NCBI GenBank assembly: GCA_963813065.1 | Contig: CAWEXP010000010.1 | Span: 96,250 to 160,249 of the forward strand | Direction of reading: 5' to 3' | DNA length: 64,000 nucleotides | Origin: Candidatus Kaiserbacteria bacterium | Lineage (GTDB): Bacteria > Patescibacteriota > Minisyncoccia > Phycocordibacterales > Phycocordibacteraceae | Shown here: positions 13,644-62,075 of the stretch, piece by piece | Layout: each line of letters begins with the position of its first letter | Position numbering within the stretch: the first letter of the stretch is position 1 | Program-made: the position numbers and the translations under genes | The notes under the pieces: generated by a model | The model's input: the letters and a program-made list of their open reading frames with translations, nothing else | The model's database searches: none | What the model was told of the DNA's origin: nothing

Positions 13644-14012
13644 ATGACAGAAACGAAAAAAGCAGCCCGATACGACTTAGAAGAGCGTACATTTACATTC
13701 GCGAAAGACGTACGGTTGTTCGTGCGTACGATACCTCGTTCTGTAGCAAATCAGGAAGATACCAGTCAACTCGTTCGCTCTTCTGGCTCGGTCGGTGCAA
13801 ACTACATAGAGGCGAACGAGGCTCTGAGCAAGAAGGACTTTCTCATGCGGATAAAAATTGCACGGAAGGAGGCCAAGGAGTCTGCATTTTGGCTCAAATT
13901 GATTGACGCGGGCAGTGTTCCTGCAGTGGAGGAGAGACGGAAGTTGCTCCAACGTGAGGCAGATGAGCTTATGTTTATTTTGAGTGCCATTATGCGTAAG
14001 AGCATGGGTTAG
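13644..14012 (+). CDS. Four-helix-bundle protein (TIGR02436; 23S rRNA intervening-sequence protein family)
   Basis: YDLEERTFTFAKDVRLFVRTIP...QLVRSSGSVGANYIEANEALSKKDFLMRIKIARKEAKESAFWLKL is the family signature. Confidence 0.75.
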   Translation: MTETKKAARYDLEERTFTFAKDVRLFVRTIPRSVANQEDTSQLVRSSGSVGANYIEANEALSKKDFLMRIKIARKEAKESAFWLKLIDAGSVPAVEERRKLLQREADELMFILSAIMRKSMG

Positions 14013-15600: not shown

Positions 15601-16326
15601 AAACTAGGACACGGCGTGTCCTAAATTTAGAGTTCGATGCTTTTGCTCTCGCTGGCGATAATTGGATCCGAAATAATGGAGCGTATTTCTTTCTGTTGTT
15701 CTTGGGTCGTGCCAAGAACTGGGCGTAATTCACTCATCTGCAAAATGGAGGGAAAATTCTTAGACTCATTGTAGTCGAGATAACTACTCCAGCGATAGGC
15801 ATGCAATTCGTCGAGTGCATCTTTTGCATGGCGAACACCTCCCTGTCGCCATTCAGGATGGCTCAAATCAAGGGGATTAAGATGAATATAGTAAGGAACA
15901 TACATAAAATGTGCATCACGAGTGACGAGAACCTTTCTGAAAGTTCCTTGCCAGAGAACGCCAGAGCGTTGATATTTTTCATTTACATATTTCGCGTAGC
16001 CCATATTCAGTTTCCGCATGAATAAAGAGAGCGAGCCTTCTTTTGTGGGGGAGACGAGCAAGTGGTAGTGGTTTGGCATGAGTGCGTACGCATGAATGTG
16101 CACAAGGAGATCCCGTTTATGCGGTGCCTCACGTGCTTTCAGTATATAGTTTGGCGCCGAGCAAGTATCATTGAATATGTACATATCATGGATAAAACGA
16201 AGATAGTCTCCGTCTTCCATAAAGACTTTTCGTTTATCGACACCCCGATTTACCAAGTGATAAAACTCCATCGAATGTCATATTAGCAAGCCGTTTCAAA
16301 CTAGGACACGGCGTGTCCTAAATAAG
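15601..16326 (-). mobile_element. REPtron 1: RayT/IS200-type Y1 transposase gene flanked by identical about 27-bp direct copies of palindrome REP1 (TAGGACACGGCGTGTCCTA)
   Basis: REP1 lies at 15605-15623 (immediately 3' of the stop) and at 16302-16320 (5' of the start). The extended identical flanks are AAACTAGGACACGGCGTGTCCTAAAT. Confidence 0.65.
15627..16271 (-). CDS. REP-associated tyrosine transposase (RayT/IS200-like, Y1 HUH) copy 1
   Basis: HUH motif NHYHLLV, and Y-motif HAYRWSSY. N-terminus MEFYHLVNRGVDKR is typical of Y1_Tnp. Confidence 0.75.
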   Translation of the reverse strand: MEFYHLVNRGVDKRKVFMEDGDYLRFIHDMYIFNDTCSAPNYILKAREAPHKRDLLVHIHAYALMPNHYHLLVSPTKEGSLSLFMRKLNMGYAKYVNEKYQRSGVLWQGTFRKVLVTRDAHFMYVPYYIHLNPLDLSHPEWRQGGVRHAKDALDELHAYRWSSYLDYNESKNFPSILQMSELRPVLGTTQEQQKEIRSIISDPIIASESKSIEL

Positions 16327-33602: not shown

Positions 33603-34046
33603 ATGGAAAAAGATTTTGACGGCTGGAATGTGCTCAAAAAGTCGATACATGTGGAGCGGGGCGCCTTAAACGCGAATCAACGCGAACTCTGGTGGATATC
33701 ATTCGGCATGAATGTCGGTGTTGAGATTGATGGCAAAGATGAGAGCTATGAGCGACCCGGCATAGTGTTGAGGAGGTTCAACCGTGAAATGGCGTGGGTA
33801 ATCCCGACAACCTCACGAGAGAAGAATTTACCCTTTTACTCCCGTTTCTCGTACGAAGGGAAGGATTATTGGGCAGTACTTACTCAAGTACGAGTCGTTA
33901 GTACCAAGCGTTTCTTACGGAAGGTTGGGATGATATCTCAAGAACGTTTTTCTGAAATGCAGAAGAAGCTTGCGGAATTCGTTTTCTTTGATGAAAACGA
34001 ACGGAACCCCGCACGGGGCGGGGTTCCTCGGAGGCCGAAGCCGTAA
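33603..34046 (+). CDS. PemK/MazF-family endoribonuclease toxin-like protein (orphan; no adjacent antitoxin ORF)
   Basis: WWISFGMNVGVEIDGKDESYERPGIVLRRFNREMAWVIPTTSREK... follows the PemK/MazF SH3-like barrel pattern (GD-I-W-V-DF...RP-LVLS...V-P-TS). Its start sits 2 nt after the giant gene's stop. Confidence 0.5.
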   Translation: MEKDFDGWNVLKKSIHVERGALNANQRELWWISFGMNVGVEIDGKDESYERPGIVLRRFNREMAWVIPTTSREKNLPFYSRFSYEGKDYWAVLTQVRVVSTKRFLRKVGMISQERFSEMQKKLAEFVFFDENERNPARGGVPRRPKP

Positions 34047-36161: not shown

Positions 36162-36900
36162 CTCCCATGTAGGGTTTCGTAAATCCTACATTCCGTCATT
36201 CAAGCCTGAATCCAGGTTCTAGGTCGCCCTGAGCATCCTTCAGATACTCGGCAAGCGCGCGAGGGTAATTCCCGAGCGCGTTCTTAAAAAGGGAAGTGGT
36301 AAGGACGGAAGGAAAATTTTTCTTGCCGGTGTAATCGAGATAACTGCTCCAGCGATAGGTGTCGAGATATTCCAAAGCTTTCTTTGCACTCTTGATGCCG
36401 TTCTTACTGCGCACGCGCCACTCCTCGGCGCCTTCGAGGTAGTCGAGCGGGTTAAGGTGGATATAGTGCAGGATGTAGTTGAACTGCGCGTCGCGCTCAA
36501 TCAATATTTTCTTCGTCCGCCCTTGGAAAAGAGTGCCCTTGCGCTCGTACCGTTCATTAAAGTAATTCGCATACCCGACATTGAGCTTGCGCAAGAATAA
36601 ACTCACTCCGCCTTCGATTTTTTCTGACAACAGCAGGTGATAGTGGTTCTTCATCAGGCACCACCCATGTATCTCCACAATCCGCTCTCGCTCAATGTAG
36701 GGTTTCGTAAATCCTACATCTGGCGCACAGCGACGCTCAGAGGCCGCAGCAGGTGAGCGGTCGTTGAATTGGTATAAGTTATGGATAAAACGAACGTAGT
36801 CGGAAGAATCAGAAAATAAGTGTCGCCCGTCAACTCCCCGATTGAGTGCATGATATAGCTCGGCCATATAGATGTAGGGTTTCGTAAATCCTACATTCAA
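36162..36900 (-). mobile_element. REPtron 2: RayT-type transposase with palindrome REP2 (TGTAGGGTTTCGTAAATCCTACA) at its 3' flank, 5' flank and inserted in-frame inside the gene
   Basis: REP2 copies at 36168-36190, 36696-36718 (internal; encodes APDVGFTKPYI, absent from copy 1) and 36873-36895. Confidence 0.65.
36196..36867 (-). CDS. REP-associated tyrosine transposase (RayT/IS200-like) copy 2. The likely start is MAELYHALNRGVDGR at 36867; the listed ORF starts at a TTG inside the upstream REP.
   Basis: HUH motif NHYHLLL and Y-motif DTYRWSSY; 55-60 percent identical to copy 1 outside the REP insertion. Confidence 0.75.
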   Translation of the reverse strand: MAELYHALNRGVDGRHLFSDSSDYVRFIHNLYQFNDRSPAAASERRCAPDVGFTKPYIERERIVEIHGWCLMKNHYHLLLSEKIEGGVSLFLRKLNVGYANYFNERYERKGTLFQGRTKKILIERDAQFNYILHYIHLNPLDYLEGAEEWRVRSKNGIKSAKKALEYLDTYRWSSYLDYTGKKNFPSVLTTSLFKNALGNYPRALAEYLKDAQGDLEPGFRLE

Positions 36901-41441: not shown

Positions 41442-42315
41442 ATGGCACTCCTCGACACTGACATCCAAGCGCTCGAACAGAAGGCGGTCGAGATTCGTAC
41501 GACCGTCATCGAGATGCTCGTGTCTGCAGGGAGCGGACACACCGCAGGGCCACTCGATATGGCGGACATTTTCACTGCCTTTTATTTTCATATTCTCAAG
41601 CATGATCCGAAGAATCCGGCGTGGGAAGAACGTGATCGGCTGATTCTCTCAAATGGCCACATTGTCCCGGTGCGCTACGCGGCGATGGCGCACGCGGGCT
41701 ATTTCCCGGTCGAGGAGTGTTTGACTCTGCGGAAGTTCGGCTCGCGTCTCCAGGGTCACCCCGAGCGATTGCGTTTGCCTGGTCTCGAGACGACCTCGGG
41801 CCCACTCGGCGAGTGGCCTCTCGCAGGCCGCGGGCATCGCGTATGCGCTCCGCATGCAGGACACGGCGTATCAATTCAGAAGTTGGACACGCCGTGTCCA
41901 ACTTGGGAAACCGCGGTGTATTGCCTCACGAGCGACGGCGAGCACGATGCGGGCAACACGTGGGAGGCGGCGCTTTGGGCGGGGAAAAATAAATTATCGA
42001 ATCTCACCGCGCGTGGTCGATCGCAACAATATCCAGATTGACGGTATGACCGAGGACGTCATGCCGCTCGAACCTTTTGCCGATAAATATCGCGCATTCA
42101 ACTGGCACGTCATCGAGGTCGACGGTCACAACATCCGCGCATTCATTGAGGCCGTTGAAGAAGCGAAGGCGATCGAAGAGAAACCGACAATGATTATCGC
42201 GCACACCATCGCGGGCAAAGGCGTGAGAGAGATTGAAGGCGACTATCACTGGCACGGCAAACCGCCCACCGCTGAAGAAGCGAAACGATTCCTCGCTGAA
42301 ATTCACCATGCATAA
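41442..42315 (+). pseudogene. tkt: Transketolase N-terminal subunit (split TK), disrupted by three frameshifts and carrying a 25-bp REP1-like hairpin inside the coding sequence
   Basis: SGHTAGPLDMADIFTAFYF..., GHPE...PGLETTSGPLGE | GLSQAAGIAYALRMQD | AVYCLTSDGEHDAGNTWEAALWAGKNKLSNLTA | VDRNNIQIDGMTEDVM...FNWHVIEVDGHN alternate between two frames. Confidence 0.65.
41880..41904. repeat. REP1-related perfect palindrome AAGTTGGACACG-C-CGTGTCCAACTT inside tkt coding sequence
   Basis: 12-bp arms. Its core GGACACG.CGTGTCC is shared with REP1 of REPtron 1. It lies exactly where the tkt frame switches. Confidence 0.6.
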
Positions 42316-45308: not shown

Positions 45309-45942
45309 ATGTTTACGCTCGAAGTAACCCAGAGAAAGGCGGGTAGCCCAGGCGCGCTCCGGCGCGCCGGGTCGGTCCCTGCGGTCGTCTATGGCGCCCA
45401 CCAGGCGTCAACGCCGATTGCGGTCGATGCCCGCGCATTCGACAAGGCCTTCAAGGTCGCCGGCGAGTCGTCGGTCATTTCGCTCACCGGTCTCGGCGCG
45501 GCTATTCCCGTACTCGTCCAGGAAGTTGATCTCGACCCGCTGACCTACCTCCCGCGCCACATCGATTTCTACGCCATCACCAAGGGCGAGAAGGTCGAGG
45601 TCGCCGTGCCACTTGTCTTCGTCGGCGAGTCGGCGGCGGTCAAGGGCGGCGCCAATCTCATCAAGGTGCTCCGCGAGCTCGAGGTCAAGGCCGACCCGAT
45701 GAATCTCCCCGCCTCCTTCGAGGTTGAATCTCGCGCTCCTCGTCAACATCGACGACCAAATTCACGCCGGCGATCTCAAGCTCCCGGCGGGTGTCGAGCT
45801 CATGGTTGAGCCCGAGGAAGTCGTTGCACTCGCGCAGGAAGTGGTTGAGGAGAAGGAGGAAGTCGCACCGGCTGACCTCTCGGCTATCGAGGTGGAGAAG
45901 AAGGGCAAGGAGGAGGCTACAGAGCCCGAAGCCAAAATTTAG
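45309..45942 (+). CDS. rplY: Ribosomal protein L25/general stress protein Ctc, with one frame shift near 45729
   Basis: N-terminal L25 domain ...RRAGSVPAVVYG. The C-terminal LALLVNIDDQIHAGDLKLPAGVELMVEPEEVVA continues in the +1 frame. Confidence 0.75.
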
Positions 45943-45984
45943 GACATCCGATGTCCTAAATGCATTTGGACATCGGATGTCCTA
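45940..45984. repeat. Pair of REP1-family palindromes in opposite orientation (BIME-like doublet): TAGGACATCCGATGTCCTA and TGGACATCGGATGTCCTA
   Basis: Copies at 45940-45958 and 45967-45984, immediately after the rplY stop. The loops CCG and CGG are inverted relative to each other. Confidence 0.55.
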
Positions 45985-46008: not shown

Positions 46009-47376
46009 ATGCGCCGGTTTTTTGTTTTCCTCACAGGACTCGTCCTCTTCACGGTACCACTCACTGTATCTGCACAAGCTAGCCCGAGCGGCTCGGTCGC
46101 TCTAGGGTCGGTCGCCGATCGCCAGGCCCAGCTCCAGGCCCAGCTCAACTCGCTCGAGAGCCAGATTGCCGACCAACAATCACTCCTGAATCTCGCGCAG
46201 AATCAGCACCAGACGCTCCAGACGCAGATCGACGCCTTGAATGCCCAGATCAAGAAGACCCAGCTCCAGATCCAAGCGATCAACCTGACTATCCAACAGC
46301 TCCAGGGCGGTATCGGCACCGACAATCAGACCCTCGCCTCGCTCTCGTCACAGCTCGCGAGCGAGCAAGAATCGCTCGCACAGATTATGCGTCAGACGCA
46401 GATGCTCGATGACTACTCGGTCGTCGAGGTCGCGCTCTCCTCGCAGGACGTGTCCGGATTCTTCAGCGATCTCGATGCGTTCACTTCTATCAAGAGTTCG
46501 CTCGCCGATTCTTTTAATCAGATCCACCAGACGAGTGCCTCGACTGAGGCTGAGAAAGCACAACTCGAAGCGAAACTCACCGAGGAACAACAGCTCCAAT
46601 CCGAGGCCCAGCTCGCCAAGCAAGAGGTCCAGCAACAAGAAGCGGACAAGGCTCAGCTCCTCGCGACGACGAAAGGCCTCGAGACGAACTATCAGAAATT
46701 AATTACGAATAATCAGAAGACGGCCGCGCAGATTCGTTCTGAACTCTTCGCGCTGGCCGGTGGTGGCGGGCAGATACCGCTCCCGACCGCCATCACGCTC
46801 GCCAAGCAAGCGGGCGCGGCCACGGGTGTGCGCCCCGCGCTCATCCTCGGCATTTTGAAACAGGAAACCGATCTCGGTGCGAACGTGGGACAGTGTCTCC
46901 TCACTAATTCGCCGAACAAGGGCGACGGTAAAGGGAAAAATACGGGCACTTATTTCCGCGGGGTGATGAAGCCCTCGCGCGATGTTGATCCATTTATGGC
47001 GATTACTTCTGCACTCGGTCTCGATCCGTATTCGATGCCGGTCTCATGCCCGCCCTCCTATGGTTACGGCGGCGCGATGGGGCCGGGGCAATTCATCTCC
47101 TCGACGTGGGTGCTCTATCAGAATCGCATTGCAAAATTGGCGGGGCATTACGGTACGCCCGCGAACCCGTGGAATAATCTCGATGCCTTCACCGCCATCG
47201 CGCTCCTGATGGCAGACGACGGCGCCGCGCTCCAGACGCCCTCTGCTGAGCGCACGGCCGCGCTCCAGTATTTCGCCGGCGGCAATTGGCGCAATCCCGC
47301 CTATGCGTTCTACGGCGACGGCGTGATGGAATTCGCCAGCGACTTCCAGCAAGACATTCAGCAACTCGGCGGGTAG
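46009..47376 (+). CDS. Secreted peptidoglycan lytic transglycosylase (SLT_2/MltB-like C-terminal domain) with a long N-terminal coiled coil
   Basis: Signal peptide, then about 230 aa of Q/L-rich heptads. C-terminal ...LGILKQETDLGAN...GAMGPGQFISSTW... matches the lytic transglycosylase catalytic region. Confidence 0.55.
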   Translation: MRRFFVFLTGLVLFTVPLTVSAQASPSGSVALGSVADRQAQLQAQLNSLESQIADQQSLLNLAQNQHQTLQTQIDALNAQIKKTQLQIQAINLTIQQLQGGIGTDNQTLASLSSQLASEQESLAQIMRQTQMLDDYSVVEVALSSQDVSGFFSDLDAFTSIKSSLADSFNQIHQTSASTEAEKAQLEAKLTEEQQLQSEAQLAKQEVQQQEADKAQLLATTKGLETNYQKLITNNQKTAAQIRSELFALAGGGGQIPLPTAITLAKQAGAATGVRPALILGILKQETDLGANVGQCLLTNSPNKGDGKGKNTGTYFRGVMKPSRDVDPFMAITSALGLDPYSMPVSCPPSYGYGGAMGPGQFISSTWVLYQNRIAKLAGHYGTPANPWNNLDAFTAIALLMADDGAALQTPSAERTAALQYFAGGNWRNPAYAFYGDGVMEFASDFQQDIQQLGG

Positions 47377-48060
47377 TTAGTCCCTCCAAGGTTGAACCTC
47401 GGCGAAAGTACGCGCATCACTAATCAACGCGTTAATGTTCGGAATTTGCGAATGCTCGTAATAATTCCGCATATTCACCCGGTTCAGTATCGCCGCTTCT
47501 GGTCGGGTTGAGCCGAGGTAATCAGGAAGACTCGAGTAACGATATTCTGCGAGAAAAACATGCGCATCTTTCTGGTTTCGGATCAGGCCCTCTTTCCACC
47601 TCGGTTCCACTAACTCCGCTGGATTCGCATGAATGTAATTTACGAGCCGTTTAAAATAACGGTCGTCGTCAACGTGTTTTGATTTGAAGCGGCCGCCGAA
47701 GAGGGCGCCAGTTCGTTCCTCTTTCTTATTAAAATACATAGTATAGCCGGTGCCGATTTTTTGCATAAAGAGAGCGACTCCATTATTGGAGGTTTGTTGT
47801 AACAGAATGTGGAAATGGTTAGGCATAAGGCAATATGCGCCGATGGCAACCAGCGGATGTTCTCGTGGCCACTCAACAATCTCCTCCAAGGTTGAACCTC
47901 GGTGGTTATCGCCCAAGTGGACGGGTGATTCGTCATTCGCACTCACGAGCAACATGAGAAAACGTTCATAGTCTCGCTCGAAAAGAAAGACATCGCGCTT
48001 ATCGACTCCGCGATTGTAACAGTGATACCACTCGTCTGTTGCGAATGGTTCTCGATTCAT
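47377..48060 (-). CDS. REP-associated tyrosine transposase (RayT/IS200-like) copy 3. The likely start is MNREPFATDEWYHCYNRGVDKR at 48060; the longer listed ORF reads through the upstream REP.
   Basis: HUH motif NHFHILL, and Y-motif EYRYSSLPDY. Confidence 0.7.
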   Translation of the reverse strand: MNREPFATDEWYHCYNRGVDKRDVFLFERDYERFLMLLVSANDESPVHLGDNHRGSTLEEIVEWPREHPLVAIGAYCLMPNHFHILLQQTSNNGVALFMQKIGTGYTMYFNKKEERTGALFGGRFKSKHVDDDRYFKRLVNYIHANPAELVEPRWKEGLIRNQKDAHVFLAEYRYSSLPDYLGSTRPEAAILNRVNMRNYYEHSQIPNINALISDARTFAEVQPWRD

Positions 48061-48102
48061 CCAACGATTGTAGCAATCCCTCCAAGGTTGAACCTCGGTT
48101 TT
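47377..48102 (-). mobile_element. REPtron 3: RayT-type transposase with imperfect palindrome REP3 (CTCCAAGGTTGAACCTCGG) at its 3' end, inside the gene and 5' of it
   Basis: REP3 at 47384-47402 (encodes the last 7 codons, EVQPWRD), 47884-47902 (internal) and 48080-98. Confidence 0.6.
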
Positions 48103-48328
48103 TTCCAGTAGGCGATAACTTACCTCTGGTCCGAGGCCGATTGCCCAGACACCCTCCGCATGCGCAGCGGACGCCAGTATGCCTACCGCCGAAGCGGCCA
48201 ACAGGAGTGTACGCATGGTAGAACCTCGCTGATGTGAAGATCGTTTTCGGACAAATCGTCCGAGTTGGGCACGAGCCCATCCGGGGGCACCTTAGCACGA
48301 GGGTGATTTATGTCAAAAATAGAAAAAG

Positions 48329-55544: not shown

Positions 55545-56292
55545 ACTCGTGGCGGTGAAACCGCCACACCGTCAGAAAGCTCAGTGCTAAACTATTTTCG
55601 ATATGAGTACGAGGAAGACCCCATTTGCAATTGGTGAGTTCTATCACATCTTCAATCGGGGAGTCGACAAGCGAATAATTTTTACCGATACACACGACAC
55701 AGACAGATTCTTCAAAAGTTTGGTCGAATTCAACGCCACCGATCCGATAGGAAGTCTTTATGAAAACTCTCGTTACCAACGTGGCGGTGAAACCGCCACA
55801 CCGTCAGAGAAACTAGTTAACATAATTGCCTACTGTCTCAATCCGAATCACTATCATCTTATTTTGGAACAGTTAGTTGATGGCGGTATTAGTGAATTTC
55901 TGAAAAGGATTGGCGGATACACTTGGTATTTCAATAACAAATATAAAAGAAACGGCTCCCTGTTTCAGGGCGTATTTAAATCAGTCCACATAGACTCAAA
56001 TGAGTATCTGCTTCACGTCAGCGCGTACGTAAACCTGAATGGTCATGTACACAAACTTGATAGCACGAATACCCAGCTAGTTTCGAGCAGATCAAGCTGG
56101 GGAGAATATACCGAAAAAGGAGCGAGAGGAATTTGTGAAAAAGAGATTGTTCTTGGGCAATTTGGAAATAACGATGAGTACAAAGAGTTCGCGCTCTCGT
56201 CCTTGGAAGCAATCATCCAAAGAAAAGAGGAACTGAAGGATTTCGATACTTTCTTGCTCGAAGAGCCCGAATGGCGGTGAAACCGCCACGAT
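55545..56292 (+). mobile_element. REPtron 4: RayT-type transposase immediately downstream of tRNA-Thr, with perfect palindrome REP4 (GTGGCGGTGAAACCGCCAC) upstream, internal and overlapping the stop
   Basis: REP4 at 55548-55566, 55781-55799 (internal; encodes RGGETATP) and 56273-56290 (contains the TGA stop). Confidence 0.65.
55603..56280 (+). CDS. REP-associated tyrosine transposase (RayT/IS200-like) copy 4
   Basis: EFYHIFNRGVDKR, HUH motif NHYHLIL, and a Y-motif region. Confidence 0.75.
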   Translation: MSTRKTPFAIGEFYHIFNRGVDKRIIFTDTHDTDRFFKSLVEFNATDPIGSLYENSRYQRGGETATPSEKLVNIIAYCLNPNHYHLILEQLVDGGISEFLKRIGGYTWYFNNKYKRNGSLFQGVFKSVHIDSNEYLLHVSAYVNLNGHVHKLDSTNTQLVSSRSSWGEYTEKGARGICEKEIVLGQFGNNDEYKEFALSSLEAIIQRKEELKDFDTFLLEEPEWR

Positions 56293-58562: not shown

Positions 58563-59342
58563 ATGAATCCCGGCCGCCTCCACCCGATCACGATTGCTAT
58601 TCGTGATATCGCGGATATCTTCGGCCGGATGGGATTCGACATTGGGTACGGGCCGGAGCTCGAAGACGAGTTCCATAACTTCGACGGACTCCGCATGTTT
58701 CCTGATCACCCTGCGCGCGACATGCAGGACACCTTCTGGCTAAAACCCGCCCTGGGCGGGTTCGCCCGACCCGACTCGTCTGACGAGTCGGGTTTAGGGG
58801 CAAGGATACCGAGAGTGCTGCGCACGCACACGACCTCGGTCACCATTCGCGAGCTCGAGCAGATGGCGAAAGAGGGCACGATCTCAGCACGAATGATTAA
58901 TCCGGGGAAAGTGTTCCGTAACGAAGCTACGGACCAATTCCACGAAGCGCAGTTCTATCAGCTCGACGGTTTTGCGGTTGGGCCAATCGGTTCGGTTACG
59001 CTCGCTGATTTGAAGGGCACCTTCGACCGTTTCTATCGCGAATATCTCGGCCCCGAGGCGAAGGTGCGTTTCCGCCCCAGCTATTTCCCCTTCGTGGAGC
59101 CGGGCGTCGAGATCGATGTGTGGTTTGCGCCCGCGCAGAAGTGGCTCGAGATGGCGGGTGCGGGCATGCTTCATCCCGACGTGCTCCGTAACGCCGGACT
59201 CGATCCGCAAAAGGTCGCGGGCTTCGCCTTCGGCGGCGGACTTGAACGTTTGCTGATGGTGAAGTACGGCATCCCTGATGTGCGACTCTTCCACTCGGGC
59301 GACATTCGTTTCGTTTACGGTTTCCCCGAAAAGAAAATATGA
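58563..59342 (+). CDS. pheS: Phenylalanine--tRNA ligase alpha subunit (short form lacking the N-terminal about 85 aa), with a roughly 20-aa in-frame insertion encoded by nested palindromes
   Basis: HPITIAIRDIADIF..., class II motifs FRPSYFPFVEPGVEIDV and GFAFGGGLERLLM. The insertion KPALGGFARPDSSDESGLGARIP falls between DTFWL and RVLRTHTTS. Confidence 0.85.
   Translation: MNPGRLHPITIAIRDIADIFGRMGFDIGYGPELEDEFHNFDGLRMFPDHPARDMQDTFWLKPALGGFARPDSSDESGLGARIPRVLRTHTTSVTIRELEQMAKEGTISARMINPGKVFRNEATDQFHEAQFYQLDGFAVGPIGSVTLADLKGTFDRFYREYLGPEAKVRFRPSYFPFVEPGVEIDVWFAPAQKWLEMAGAGMLHPDVLRNAGLDPQKVAGFAFGGGLERLLMVKYGIPDVRLFHSGDIRFVYGFPEKKI
58743..58795. repeat. Nested palindromes inside pheS coding sequence: AACCCGCCC-t-GGGCGGGTT and CCCGACTCGTC-t-GACGAGTCGGG, enclosed by AAACCCG...CGGGTTT
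   Basis: Perfect 9-bp and 11-bp inverted repeats read directly from the sequence. Confidence 0.6.
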
Positions 59343-61591
59343 AAGTCTCCCGCGCGTGGTTGCAGAACTATTTTGATACGCCGCTTCCGAGCGTGGCGGA
59401 GATTGCCGATGCCTACACTTTTCACGCATTTGAAATAGAAGAAACCGATGGCGACGTGCTCGATGTAAAAGTGCTCCCGAATCGCGCGGCGGATTGCCTC
59501 TCAGTGCGCGGCTTGGCGAAAGAGCTCTCGGCCATTCTCAATATTCCGCTCAGGCACGATCCGCTCCGCGACCCTCTCTCCGCATTTCCGAAAACCAAAG
59601 AACTCACCGTCGCAATAGATGACCCGAAGAAATGCCTGCGCTACATGGGCGCGCTGGTGAAGGGCGTGCAGGTTGGCTCCTCGCCCGCGTGGCTTAAAGA
59701 AGCGCTTGAATCAGTCGGCCAGCGTTCAATCAACAACGTCGTCGACGCGACAAACTATGTGATGCTCAATCTCGGCCAGCCTCTGCACGCGTTCGATGCA
59801 GGGAAACTAGACGATTGTGTGCATGAAGGAAAGTACGGCATCGGCGTGCAGATGGGGTGGAACGATAGAGACTTCACGACGCTCTCGGGAGACACGGTGC
59901 CACTTTCTGACAACACACTCATTATTGTGGATGACAATTGTGGGACGCCGCTTGCCATTGCGGGCATCAAGGGCGGCAAAGCCGCTGAAGTCTCTGCGGA
60001 AACAAAAAACATCATCGTTGAGTCCGCGAATTTCGACGGCACTTTGGTGCGTCGCACCGCCCAAGCTTTGAAACTGTTTACCGATGCATCGCTCCGCTTC
60101 CAGAATCGCCCGTCGCCCGAGCTGGTGGCGTACGGCATGCGCGATGTACTTGCGCTTATCAAAGATATTGCGGGTGGGGAGGTGGTGGGCGTTGTTGACG
60201 AATACCCCAAGCCGGTTAAGCCCTACAAGACCGGCGTCTCGGCGAGCGAGATACACTCGCTTCTCGGTAGAGCATTTTCAGAAAAAGAAATCTCAGATGT
60301 TTTTGAACGATTGAACCTGCCTTTTGAACTCGTCGACCCGCTCCAGCGTATTCTCGACGTCGCGCAGACGCAGGTGGGCAAGCCCTATAAACACGGAGCA
60401 TCAGTGCTTCGCGATTCTCCTGACGCGTTCGACTGCTCCTCTCTCATTGCGTGGTGTTTCGCGCAGGCGGGCATCGGCGGCGTTCCGCGTATCTCGATTG
60501 ATCAATATGTCTGGAGCGATCCGATCGAAGAAAAAGATCTTGCGGCAGGTGACTTGATATTTTTCAGCACACCGACCAGCTATGTGTGGCACGAGTCGCA
60601 GGAATATCTGCCGGGGACAAAGGTGCCAGGCGGAATCAGCCACGTTGCGCTCGCGCTCGGTGACGGGAAGATGATTCATGCGCACGGCAAGGACGAACAT
60701 GCGGTTGTCATCCACGTCATCGCGGATTCACCGCGTCGAGGTGAGATTATCGGGTATCGTCGCCCCCGCGGACTCGGCGAAAAACGATTTGCAGTCACAG
60801 TCCCTTTCGAGCGCGTCGATCTGCGTATCAAAGAGGATTTGATAGAAGAAGTTGGTCGCATCCGCGGCTACGACACAATCCCCGCATCTGATGTAGGACT
60901 TACGAAACCCTACACGCCAGATCAAGCCAGATATAGAGGTATTGAGCGGATGAAGGACGAGCTCGTTGCGCAAGGATTTACGGAAGTTTCTACACAATCG
61001 TTTGCAAAAAAAGGCGACATCGCGCTTGCGAACCCACTCGACAAAGCGAAGCCGTTTCTCCGCACAACGCTGGAAGAAAACTTGAAAGAGGCCCTCGCCA
61101 AGGCCAAGCTATACGCGCCTCTCGTGCTCACGCCGGGCGAGAAGCCGAAACTTTTTGAAGTGGGGACGGTTTTCCCTAAGACAGGAGAATATATGGAATT
61201 GCGAACTACTGATGGTTCAGTCACGAATCTCTCAACACAAGAGATTGACGCTCCAGACTATGTGCCGGTGCGCTACGAGCTTGGGGCGTACAAGTCGTTT
61301 TCTGTCTACCCGTTCATCACCCGCGATATCGCATTTTGGGTTCCCGAGGGAACAACTGCCGATGTTGCAGGGGCCGCTCTCGACGATGTATTACGTACAA
61401 GCTCCTCCTTCAACCTCGCGATAAAAACGCAGATATGGCCACTCGACAAATACGAGAAGGATGGACGTACGTCTTTCGCGTTTCGAATCATTTTTCAACC
61501 AGTCGAAAAAACCCTTACTGATGAGGAGGTAAATACGGTGATGGATAAGATTTACGCGGTACTCAAGAACGAGGGTTTCGAGGTTCGCTAA
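59339..61591 (+). CDS. pheT: Phenylalanine--tRNA ligase beta subunit, carrying an in-frame NlpC/P60 (C40 papain-like peptidase) domain within its B5 domain and an in-frame REP2 copy
   Basis: B3/4 region (LHAFDAGKL...IAGIKGG); B5 halves FERLNLPFELVD and RFAVTVPFERVDLRIKEDLIEEVGRIRGYDTIP; C-terminal FDX-ACB. 4-nt overlap with the pheS stop. Confidence 0.85.
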   Translation: MKVSRAWLQNYFDTPLPSVAEIADAYTFHAFEIEETDGDVLDVKVLPNRAADCLSVRGLAKELSAILNIPLRHDPLRDPLSAFPKTKELTVAIDDPKKCLRYMGALVKGVQVGSSPAWLKEALESVGQRSINNVVDATNYVMLNLGQPLHAFDAGKLDDCVHEGKYGIGVQMGWNDRDFTTLSGDTVPLSDNTLIIVDDNCGTPLAIAGIKGGKAAEVSAETKNIIVESANFDGTLVRRTAQALKLFTDASLRFQNRPSPELVAYGMRDVLALIKDIAGGEVVGVVDEYPKPVKPYKTGVSASEIHSLLGRAFSEKEISDVFERLNLPFELVDPLQRILDVAQTQVGKPYKHGASVLRDSPDAFDCSSLIAWCFAQAGIGGVPRISIDQYVWSDPIEEKDLAAGDLIFFSTPTSYVWHESQEYLPGTKVPGGISHVALALGDGKMIHAHGKDEHAVVIHVIADSPRRGEIIGYRRPRGLGEKRFAVTVPFERVDLRIKEDLIEEVGRIRGYDTIPASDVGLTKPYTPDQARYRGIERMKDELVAQGFTEVSTQSFAKKGDIALANPLDKAKPFLRTTLEENLKEALAKAKLYAPLVLTPGEKPKLFEVGTVFPKTGEYMELRTTDGSVTNLSTQEIDAPDYVPVRYELGAYKSFSVYPFITRDIAFWVPEGTTADVAGAALDDVLRTSSSFNLAIKTQIWPLDKYEKDGRTSFAFRIIFQPVEKTLTDEEVNTVMDKIYAVLKNEGFEVR
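60335..60790 (+). other. NlpC/P60 peptidase domain (about 150 aa) embedded in pheT between the two halves of the B5 domain
   Basis: VGKPYKHGAS...PDAFDCSSLIAWCFAQAGIGGVPRISIDQY...LAAGDLIFF...GGISHVALALGDGKMIHAHG matches the NlpC/P60 pattern (G-PY-GG...FDCSGL...GI-LPR-S--Q...GDL-FF...HVGIY-G-G--IHA), with a candidate Cys-His-His triad. Confidence 0.6.
60892..60914. repeat. REP2 copy (TGTAGGACTTACGAAACCCTACA) inserted in-frame inside pheT, encoding DVGLTKPYT
   Basis: 22 of 23 identical to the reverse complement of REP2 flanking REPtron 2. Confidence 0.6.
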
Positions 61592-61592
61592 C

Positions 61593-62075
61593 ATGCCGGT
61601 GCCGTTTTATTCCCAGCATGCCGAGGACGTCCCCCTAGAGTGGCGCCACCGCGCGTGCGGTATCATTGCGCTTCGCATGGCGCTCGCACACTTTGGTAAA
61701 GAGGTGTCGCCCACGGAACTTATCGAGACCGGTGTCGCGACCGGCGCGTACGACCCGAAGTTTGGTTGGCGGCACGATGGTCTCATCGCGCTCGCGCAGA
61801 AGTGGGGCGTGAAGGCTGAGCGGAAAGAATTTAAGAAAAACCTCGAAGAGGGGAGTGTGTATCTTCGCGAGTCGCTCGCGAATGGCCAGGTCCCCATCGT
61901 CTCGCTCCGCGTCGAGGGCATAACTGACACGCACCTCGTCGCGCTCGTCGGCGCCGACGCAAACGGCTTCCTCTACAACGACCCCGCGCTCGACGCCACG
62001 ACCGGCTCGCATCTCGCTATCTCCAACGTCGACTTCCTCCGTCGCTGGCGCGCTCTCGCGATTTTCGTGGGATAA
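61593..62075 (+). CDS. Papain-like cysteine peptidase domain protein (Peptidase_C39_2/BtrH-N-like)
   Basis: YSQHAEDVPLEWRHRACGIIALRMALAHFG resembles the C39-like catalytic Cys region (Y-Q...CGP-S-AM-L). Starts 2 nt after the pheT stop. Confidence 0.45.
   Translation: MPVPFYSQHAEDVPLEWRHRACGIIALRMALAHFGKEVSPTELIETGVATGAYDPKFGWRHDGLIALAQKWGVKAERKEFKKNLEEGSVYLRESLANGQVPIVSLRVEGITDTHLVALVGADANGFLYNDPALDATTGSHLAISNVDFLRRWRALAIFVG

Follow-up and report, generated by a model that had tools for sequence, protein, structure and literature searches.

A two-hairpin in-frame insertion in pheS, with diverged copies in pheT, as a probable miniature mobile element of Candidate Phyla Radiation bacteria

How do two perfect palindromes come to lie, in frame, within an essential gene for an aminoacyl-tRNA synthetase? 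The question is raised by pheS, encoding the alpha subunit of phenylalanyl-tRNA synthetase (PheRS), in a 64,000-nucleotide stretch of Candidatus Kaiserbacteria DNA (contig CAWEXP010000010.1; the whole stretch is called the window below). An earlier account made from the DNA letters only, referred to here as the sequence-only reading, had proposed a selfish insertion in the style of the Rickettsia palindromic elements (RPEs). We consider it probable, with appreciable room for doubt, that pheS carries a miniature insertion element with two hairpins, belonging to a new family and resembling RPEs and the miniature transposable elements with inverted repeats known as MITEs, which is tolerated in a disordered protein loop and mobilised in trans by a structure-recognising enzyme. 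The earlier proposal thus holds in part: the insertion is discrete and frame-preserving, has homologues in pheT and empty sites in relatives, and is flanked by a 2-nt repeat. Membership of the RPEs and dispersal were not borne out, and the stems proved to be conserved.

The host gene (58563-59342, plus strand) was assigned from the list of open reading frames (ORFs), Pfam, PDB matches and homologues. It encodes a PheS of 259 amino acids, the short form found in bacteria of the Candidate Phyla Radiation (CPR), without the N-terminal coiled coil. Pfam family PF01409 (tRNA-synt_2d) matches at 1.1e-78 and the PDB entries for Thermus thermophilus and Escherichia coli PheS at 3e-60; the best homologues carry the names Paceibacterota, Kaiserbacteria or Patescibacteria. 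The sequence-only reading had remarked on missing N-terminal residues. Their absence is real, but since all 120 best homologues are 236-279 amino acids long and share the short N-terminus, it is on this comparison a trait of the lineage, unconnected with the insert. In most relatives the loop between DTFW(I/L) and VLRTHTT consists of 6 residues, typically KDQPGK or KDRPGY, and only a handful have a longer one. The E. coli loop, previously taken as canonical, is an arbitrary standard: T. thermophilus PheS has about 18 extra residues in the same loop, which E. coli PheS lacks. Because of the Thermus insert and of unrelated insertions at the same place in other CPR lineages, the alignments indicate that this loop is intrinsically permissive. 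In an AlphaFold2 model built on a 50-sequence alignment, PheS residues ~61-83 have a confidence score (pLDDT) of ~50 and no secondary structure, whereas the catalytic core is modelled confidently. Together with the conserved frame, the model suggests that the insert would be translated as 20 extra residues in a disordered loop between DTFW and VLRTHT.

The unrelated insertions are of diverse kinds. At locus L009 (276-374) the loop contains low-complexity DNA, (GAGGGGY)n facing (CCTCAAA)n, and at L010 (420-542) tandem GCAGAYTAAC units encoding the peptide ADLTQINADE. At L008 (2177-2275) the loop is 23 amino acids long and begins with the conserved FW codons in reverse complement (GTTCTGGAT/ATCCAGAAC); to judge by its peptide (PGDNSDK versus PDSSDE), this loop may have arisen from the element by decay.

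Alignment of homologues, comparing filled with empty sites, delimits the insert and its parts as follows.

58740-58797, plus strand: inserted element of 58 nt, reading CTAAAAC, hairpin 1, CGCCCG, hairpin 2, (G)GTTTAG (filled versus empty sites; covariance models).
58738-58739, plus strand: left flanking GG, which ends the Trp codon TGG and is the target dinucleotide (filled versus empty sites).
58798-58799, plus strand: right flanking GG, an apparent 2-nt target-site duplication (filled versus empty sites).
58744-58762, plus strand: hairpin 1, AACCCGCCC T GGGCGGGTT, a perfect inverted repeat of 9 bp with arms at 58744-58752 and 58754-58762.
58763-58768, plus strand: conserved unpaired linker CGCCCG, which is CGCTCG in the copies at pheT site 2 (alignments).
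58769-58793, plus strand: hairpin 2, ACCCGACTCGTC T GACGAGTCGGGT, a perfect inverted repeat of 12 bp with arms at 58769-58780 and 58782-58793.
58740-58749, plus strand: left terminal inverted repeat CTAAAACCCG, pairing with CGGGTTTAG at 58789-58797 (inverted-repeat search).
58800-58814, plus strand: remnant of the native loop of 5-7 amino acids (ARIPR), pushed downstream by the insertion (homology to the loops of relatives).

Together with the second GG, the element makes up 60 nt or 20 codons (58740-58799) and encodes LKPALGGFARPDSSDESGLG. Hence the size and frame given earlier for an insert of about 20 residues hold; its true span is 58740-58799 and not 58741-58800, and the ARIPR that follows it is native. 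The two adjacent hairpins are present exactly as they had been described, with arms of 9 and 12 bp that are 100% complementary and separated by 1 nt. A third, enclosing hairpin had also been proposed. The outer pairing AAACCCG/CGGGTTT (58743-58749/58789-58795) does exist, but as a short terminal inverted repeat rather than a separate hairpin; since ACCCG/CGGGT forms the base of both hairpins, this pairing adds no independent evidence. Folded as RNA, positions 58735-58805 (71 nt) reach -41.7 kcal/mol (z -3.95), a value equalled by 1 of 200 dinucleotide shuffles; as DNA they reach -25.8 kcal/mol (z -5.5), which 0 of 200 shuffles equalled. Neither palindrome was found elsewhere in the window, even with up to 3 mismatches allowed. 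Rfam returned one tRNA for the whole window at the gathering threshold and only sub-threshold noise for the element locus at a permissive E-value, and a scan for terminators and promoters gave nothing at the element hairpins. A candidate antisense terminator (GGGCGGGTTTTAG on the minus strand) was rejected, falling short of the criteria of the terminator scan.

Five further distinct pheS genes, from independent NCBI, ENA, JGI and Logan assemblies (L001/P0003, L002/P0004, L004/P0005, L006/P0007 and L012), share the insert: a homologue of it occupies the same position in each, and neither hairpin has been lost. In the codon alignment the carriers read TGG-CTAAAAC...GGTTTAG-GG-ATA (or GCA), and the empty sites read TGG-ATA (L008) and TGG-GCA (L007). 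The residues behind the insert can be recognised as displaced native loop. In P0004, the Trp and the 20 inserted residues are followed by IQGEQGN, similar to the loop IQGEKGK that directly follows the Trp in P0071, its nearest non-carrier (0.92 identical outside the loop). Likewise, ARIPR in the window has its homologue in AKEIAGKPKQ, the loop of the closest non-carrier, P0002/L007, which is 0.90 identical to the window PheS and has the same unusual PheT. With the native loop displaced downstream and the sites empty in relatives, it follows that the event added the 58-nt element plus the second GG; judged by these comparisons, the insertion is discrete and frame-preserving, with clean empty sites in the closest relatives. 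Three indels occur among the pheS copies, all multiples of 3, and apparently decayed versions are seen in P0006/L008 and P0056. The sequence-only reading had named as its refutation close relatives with the same residues and no DNA symmetry; those found instead keep palindromic DNA with compensated changes.

The carriers are scattered among sequences with ordinary loops. On the PheS backbone the window protein falls beside P0002, a non-carrier. The nearest sequences to P0007 are P0061 and P0109 (0.83-0.84 identity, versus 0.73-0.76 to other carriers), and the group of P0003, P0004, P0005 and L012 is interleaved with sequences having 6-residue loops, at 0.89-0.92 identity. This neighbour-joining tree, calculated from 236 columns without bootstrap, suggests that the carriers are not a clade. 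The 6-residue loops are, on the alignment, ancestral, because they match the general consensus. Interleaving of carriers with relatives that have the ancestral loop therefore requires that the element was gained repeatedly at a single site or else was lost without a scar.

Diverged copies were found in the adjacent gene. A covariance model (R1) was built from the six pheS copies only and was followed by models R2 and R3, the last being the most general; the window copy scores 88-96 bits with R1-R3. R1 finds a copy at 7057-7123 of L012, inside pheT (32.9 bits, E 7e-7 in 154 kb), which coincides exactly with a 19-residue insertion relative to related PheT. A search of PheT homologues revealed two recurrent insert sites, site 1 following FEIDExQ (inserts in P0121, P0129 and P0148) and site 2 following GGKAA (P0123 and P0135). 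With R2 further pheT copies were detected in L025 (50.4 bits), L026 (31.6), L004 (28.3) and L024 (25.6), corresponding to in-frame insertions of 18 amino acids each, or 17 in L004. The family thus comprises 11 copies at three sites in two adjacent genes, from 9 distinct genomes or assemblies. Every copy begins with CTAnAAC and ends with (G)GTTTAG; between them lie hairpin 1, of 9 bp and with AAC/GTT as its outer pairs, then the linker CGC(C/T)CG, then hairpin 2, which has 6-12 bp.

In the pheT copies structure is kept while sequence is not. The unpaired CTAnAAC, GTTCGC(C/T)CGAC and GTTTAG are retained, and both stems change by compensated substitutions: in hairpin 1 the outer AAC/GTT is invariant and the inner pairs are fully compensated (CTTCTCC/GGAGAAG, CCCCTTC/GAAGGGG, CTTCGTC/GACGAAG), and hairpin 2 is shorter (6-7 bp) and of different sequence, still paired. 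Across nine copies, in an alignment fitted to the covariance model, 96.8% of cells are paired versus 77.9% in shuffles, and 0 of 500 shuffles reach 96.8%; 10 of the 19 pairs have changed on both sides, and slid controls are 23-46% paired. Model-guided alignments were used as MAFFT, applied to the 11 copies, mispaired pheT hairpin 1 with pheS hairpin 2.

The insertion sites also have features in common. The 2-nt flanking repeat is GG..GG in pheS and likewise at pheT site 1, whereas pheT site 2 has AG..AG; in L025 the left flank copy reads GA. Empty pheT sites in relatives read CAGG-GT (site 1) and GCAG-A(A/G)CTC (site 2). Each of the three sites has YRG^ as its insertion target, and the RG common to target and element junction could reflect a duplication or, alternatively, cleavage sites that match. 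The elements measure 58, 55, 52 and 49 nt (pheT copies 49-55), each 1 mod 3, so that with the 2-nt repeat the reading frame is kept. The frame itself differs between the genes, CTA AAA in pheS and (G)CT AAA in pheT, giving FARPDSSDESG versus EVRPTExEARFR. Since the two genes use different frames, the peptide is not the conserved thing; the comparison implies that the hairpins are a property of the element and not of pheS. Apparently, then, this is an undescribed family of Paceibacteria-type CPR bacteria that resembles the RPEs.

How could such an element arrive? The element, a copy from a small non-coding family (49-58 nt), entered pheS right after the Trp codon (TGG^), and GG now stands on both sides. 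With 60 nt added and the frame kept, the ribosome would read through, adding 20 residues to a tolerant disordered loop. The comparisons imply that the insertion can be acquired, or lost cleanly, since the nearest relatives of the carriers have intact ancestral loops. The element would be mobilised in trans, now or recently, by an enzyme recognising its structure. The most plausible class is a hairpin-binding HUH transposase (Y1, IS200/RAYT-type; RAYT, REP-associated tyrosine transposase; REP, repetitive extragenic palindromic sequence), and a recombinase exchanging strands at a 2-bp RG core would be an alternative.

Candidate machinery of the first kind is encoded nearby. Pfam scans of all 51 ORFs of the window identified four IS200-type Y1_Tnp (PF01797) genes of 214-279 amino acids.

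15630-16271, minus strand: Y1_Tnp ORF (Pfam), with hairpin TAGGACACGGCGTGTCCTA at 15605 and 16302.
36199-36900, minus strand: Y1_Tnp ORF (Pfam), with hairpin ATGTAGGGTTTCGTAAATCCTACAT at 36168 and 36872.
47380-48216, minus strand: Y1_Tnp ORF (Pfam).
55603-56277, plus strand: Y1_Tnp ORF (Pfam), with hairpin GTGGCGGTGAAACCGCCAC at 55549 and 56273.

Three of the four genes are thus bracketed on both sides by their own identical hairpin, an arrangement that looks RAYT/REPtron-like or IS200-like; classical IS200 TnpA is shorter than these proteins. Hairpin-dependent mobile DNA is abundant in the genome of the window. None of the Y1-associated hairpins matches the pheS element, and the link to Y1 enzymes is accordingly a lead only. 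Pfam scans of the window ORFs found no serine recombinase. The products of the ORFs at 15630 and 36199 are 50% identical. An intergenic palindrome, TAGGACAYSNSRTGTCCTA, has five copies in the window against 0.16 expected (15605-15623, 16302-16320, 41883-41901, 45940-45958 and 45966-45984); two of them flank a Y1 transposase gene and two stand in tandem upstream of an ORF starting at 46009. This palindrome family is probably a REP-like repeat or an operator.

Several results weigh against a mobile, purely selfish element, among them the distribution of copies. With R3 and filters off, no copy was found beyond pheS in the window, nor outside pheST in ~80 kb of the relatives' loci, where no locus held more than two copies. 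An exact-pattern scan of 185,579 species genomes gave one match, in pheS of the P0004 genome, and the same kind of scan of JGI metagenomes gave four, two in pheS and two unrelated lone hairpins. A gapped-pattern scan of IMG/VR gave 8 matches, none scored by the model and all hence put down to chance; blastn against plasmids and phages gave no match. The search for a palindrome family called for by the sequence-only reading thus produced copies only in pheS or pheT, in the window, the relatives' loci and the collection scans alike. The collection scans demanded exact stems of the pheS type, which diverged copies would escape, and the model searches extended to the window and the relatives' loci. 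Nor was an autonomous partner sharing the ends or hairpins of the element found among the 51 window ORFs scanned with Pfam, or element ends beside the Y1 genes. IS200/IS605 insertion makes no target duplication, and the 2-nt repeat therefore needs a special explanation if a Y1 enzyme is invoked. Read-through itself is predicted from frame conservation and the three indels, all multiples of 3.

The second group of adverse results concerns conservation in place. At synonymous third positions the six pheS carriers are 0.71-1.00 identical inside the element versus 0.33-0.63 outside, and among codon columns with an invariant amino acid the third base is invariant in 7 of 10 inside versus 10 of 140 outside (Fisher p 6.6e-6). 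This pattern suggests selection on resident copies, which a purely selfish relic would not predict. The immediate flanks (HPARDMQDTFW, VLRTH) show ordinary synonymous scatter, which argues against a recently recombined patch, and variation among the pheS copies is confined to the apical loops and the displaced native loop. Finally, similarity is higher among the copies of one site than between sites, which fits one old insertion per site better than frequent hopping.

Two candidate copies met in these searches were rejected. A weak model match in L019 lies elsewhere than the pattern match there and is not in pheS. Two adjacent hairpins at 33976-34025 of the window (minus strand) score 13 bits (E 0.15-0.3) and have neither the termini nor the linker. 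These hairpins (AACCCCGC..GCGGGGTT, then TTCGTTTTC..GAAAACGAA) sit at the end of an ORF for a PemK/MazF-like toxin.

A role specific to pheST would explain both the operon-restricted distribution and the conservation in place. The element would then be a domesticated cis-acting structure of this operon, duplicated within it, a view that we regard as unlikely yet serious. Whatever its origin, it would be kept for its action in the pheST mRNA or DNA, where it might, for instance, bind PheRS or some other factor, govern processing or stability, or make translation pause. More broadly, and with no better prospects, the module might be tied to the PheRS operon as an in-frame regulatory RNA motif coupling alpha and beta expression, or as a pheST-targeting 'homing' mini-element, kept by selection and able to leave without a scar. 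All 11 copies do lie in pheS or pheT, and every one is oriented as the mRNA. In loci chosen for their pheS copy only, both extra copies fall within the ~9.5 kb of pheT, and ~100 kb of sequence elsewhere contains none (p ~0.008, a rough estimate from few, non-randomly sampled loci, which limits the operon bias as a whole). Stems and unpaired linkers are kept in place well above synonymous sites while the loops drift, and covariation keeps structure, not sequence. However, many close relatives lack the element at each site and have their ancestral loops intact, so that it is dispensable, and apparently decayed versions exist in P0006/L008 and P0056. No Rfam family matches, and no mimic of the tRNA-Phe anticodon or T-arm is recognisable. 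Mismatches show no clear preference for the sense RNA strand, G.U pairs counting 6 and antisense-compatible ones (A.C) 2, most of them from one low-GC genome. Moreover, several hairpins are perfect to the one base at their centre, and orthologues differ in the apical pair of hairpin 1, which may be C:G, G:C or A:T. Because folding cannot select for perfection up to one central base, we infer that the arms undergo some templated correction as DNA.

That perfection, with its covarying apical pair, is also what might be expected of a palindrome generated locally, by template switching or fold-back replication in a permissive loop, rather than of a transposed unit. The loop is a hot spot for the unrelated low-complexity insertions of L009 and L010, and the L008 hairpin is made from conserved FW codons. 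We nevertheless hold a purely local origin to be very improbable, as it cannot account for homologous copies with the same linkers, termini and 2-nt repeats at two pheT sites; even so, the perfection of the arms may be maintained partly by template switching. Even less can be said for a lineage-specific functional peptide with incidental DNA symmetry. The six pheS carriers do have similar peptides (GGFARPDSSDESGLG), yet synonymous third positions are near invariant inside the element and near saturation outside it, the pheT copies encode EVRPTExEARFR in another frame, AlphaFold predicts no structure for the insert, and close relatives do without it. Least credible of all, with hardly any probability left to it, is true membership of the RPE families. 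RPEs behave in the same way, as in-frame palindromic repeats that are read through: in the summaries of Ogata et al. 2000 and 2002 given by PMC10969869 and PMC1779305, RPE-1 to RPE-10 appear as palindromic, non-autonomous elements lying in frame in housekeeping genes. Rickettsia pheT itself contains an RPE-7-derived in-frame insert of 63-84 bp in the beta subunit (PMC1779305), which by analogy is the nearest counterpart of the present insert. As with RPEs, the protein sites are tolerant and orthologous copies are kept across species. Yet RPEs are interspersed repeats of 100-150 bp, tens per genome, in unrelated genes and intergenic DNA of Rickettsia (PMC1779305, PMC10969869). In contrast, the present element measures 49-58 nt, belongs to a CPR host of another phylum, consists of two adjacent short hairpins with conserved motifs of its own, a 2-nt flank and a length of 1 mod 3, is read in two frames, and has been seen only in pheS and pheT. 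Simpler ideas were discarded as well: an intein or intron (the insert is of insufficient size and has frame-preserving indels), translational bypass (there is conservation of both frame and residues), attenuation at a single Phe codon (no stop or leader logic) and tRNA-Phe mimicry (no consistent GAA loop or T-arm).

A miniature mobile element thus remains our preferred reading, and it can be set beside the known small elements. Like the MITEs Correia/NEMIS, ERIC and Nezha (PMC10969869), it is small and non-coding, with short terminal inverted repeats CTAAA(A)C/GTTTAG, a flanking direct repeat, filled and empty sites and occasional in-frame fusions. It differs in its much shorter terminal repeats (6-9 nt), in internal stems kept by covariation, and in a 2-nt flank that is RG and not the TA of the IS630/Tc1 type; no parent insertion sequence with the same ends was found. 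With REP/REPIN-RAYT and IS200/IS605 systems it shares hairpins kept over sequence and copies in one orientation, and two hairpins with clean empty sites would fit the seamless single-strand excision of IS200/IS605. Miniature derivatives of IS200/IS605 (PATEs) have subterminal hairpins at both ends and insert 3' of a fixed short target without duplicating it. In contrast to REPs, which are extragenic, it is intragenic and without a GTAG head, and unlike IS200/IS605 it has a 2-nt flanking repeat and hairpins matching none of those associated with Y1 genes in the window. Serine transposons of the IS607 family insert at GG, leave GG at the junctions through exchange of a 2-bp core, and excise without a scar (PMC6188088). 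The GG..GG flanks at two of the three sites recall them; however, IS607 elements lack terminal inverted repeats and end with direct-repeat motifs, whereas the present element has short inverted termini, its third site uses AG, and the window scans found no serine recombinase. Perfect coding inverted repeats of up to 284 bp, both arms of which encode conserved protein, are known from mitochondrial genes of Nematomorpha (PMC6649704). There too palindromes lie inside translated genes, where protein function and strict secondary structure are kept together, but those repeats are not discrete insertions with empty sites. For Patescibacteria, no account of MITE-like elements, or of palindromic ones lying in frame, came up in a literature search.

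The neighbourhood offers further observations. The pheT gene of the window (59339-61591) encodes a PheRS beta subunit of 750 amino acids with an NlpC/P60 hydrolase domain (residues 347-456, 4.8e-13) beside a truncated B5 match. PheT of the relatives is 603-630 amino acids long without NlpC/P60, and only the closest relative, L007 (748 amino acids), has it. A peptidoglycan hydrolase domain within an aminoacyl-tRNA synthetase subunit is unusual. The ORF after pheT (61593-62075) encodes a C39-like peptidase. A second, unrelated in-frame coding palindrome occurs in PheT of relatives, where it encodes PMWDLGGPTSL from the DNA GTGGGACC-TCGGA-GGTCCCAC (L024, ~1090-1130, pheT of P0123). It is located near residue 85 in five proteins (P0123, P0135, P0136, P0167 and P0233) and again at residue 393 in P0167, whereas the window lacks it. 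Its presence suggests that these CPR genomes harbour more than one family of translated palindromes, perhaps several. The ORF at 13644-14009 belongs to the 23S rRNA intervening-sequence protein family (PF05635, 8e-13), a member of which is also present near pheST in L004.

Translated palindromic repeats lying in frame have hitherto been treated as near-exclusive to Rickettsia, and they would now extend to the CPR, in the form of selfish or co-opted DNA, much smaller than RPEs, in surface loops of essential proteins. Unexplained lineage-specific inserts are common in CPR core proteins and are sometimes taken as adaptive. The confinement of all copies to pheS or pheT, with resident stems conserved above synonymous sites, makes the element a puzzle, and it provides a test case for hairpin-recognising transposases moving very small cargo. 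The searchable model CTAnAAC, hairpin 1, CGCYCG, hairpin 2, GTTTAG can be used in annotating CPR genomes.

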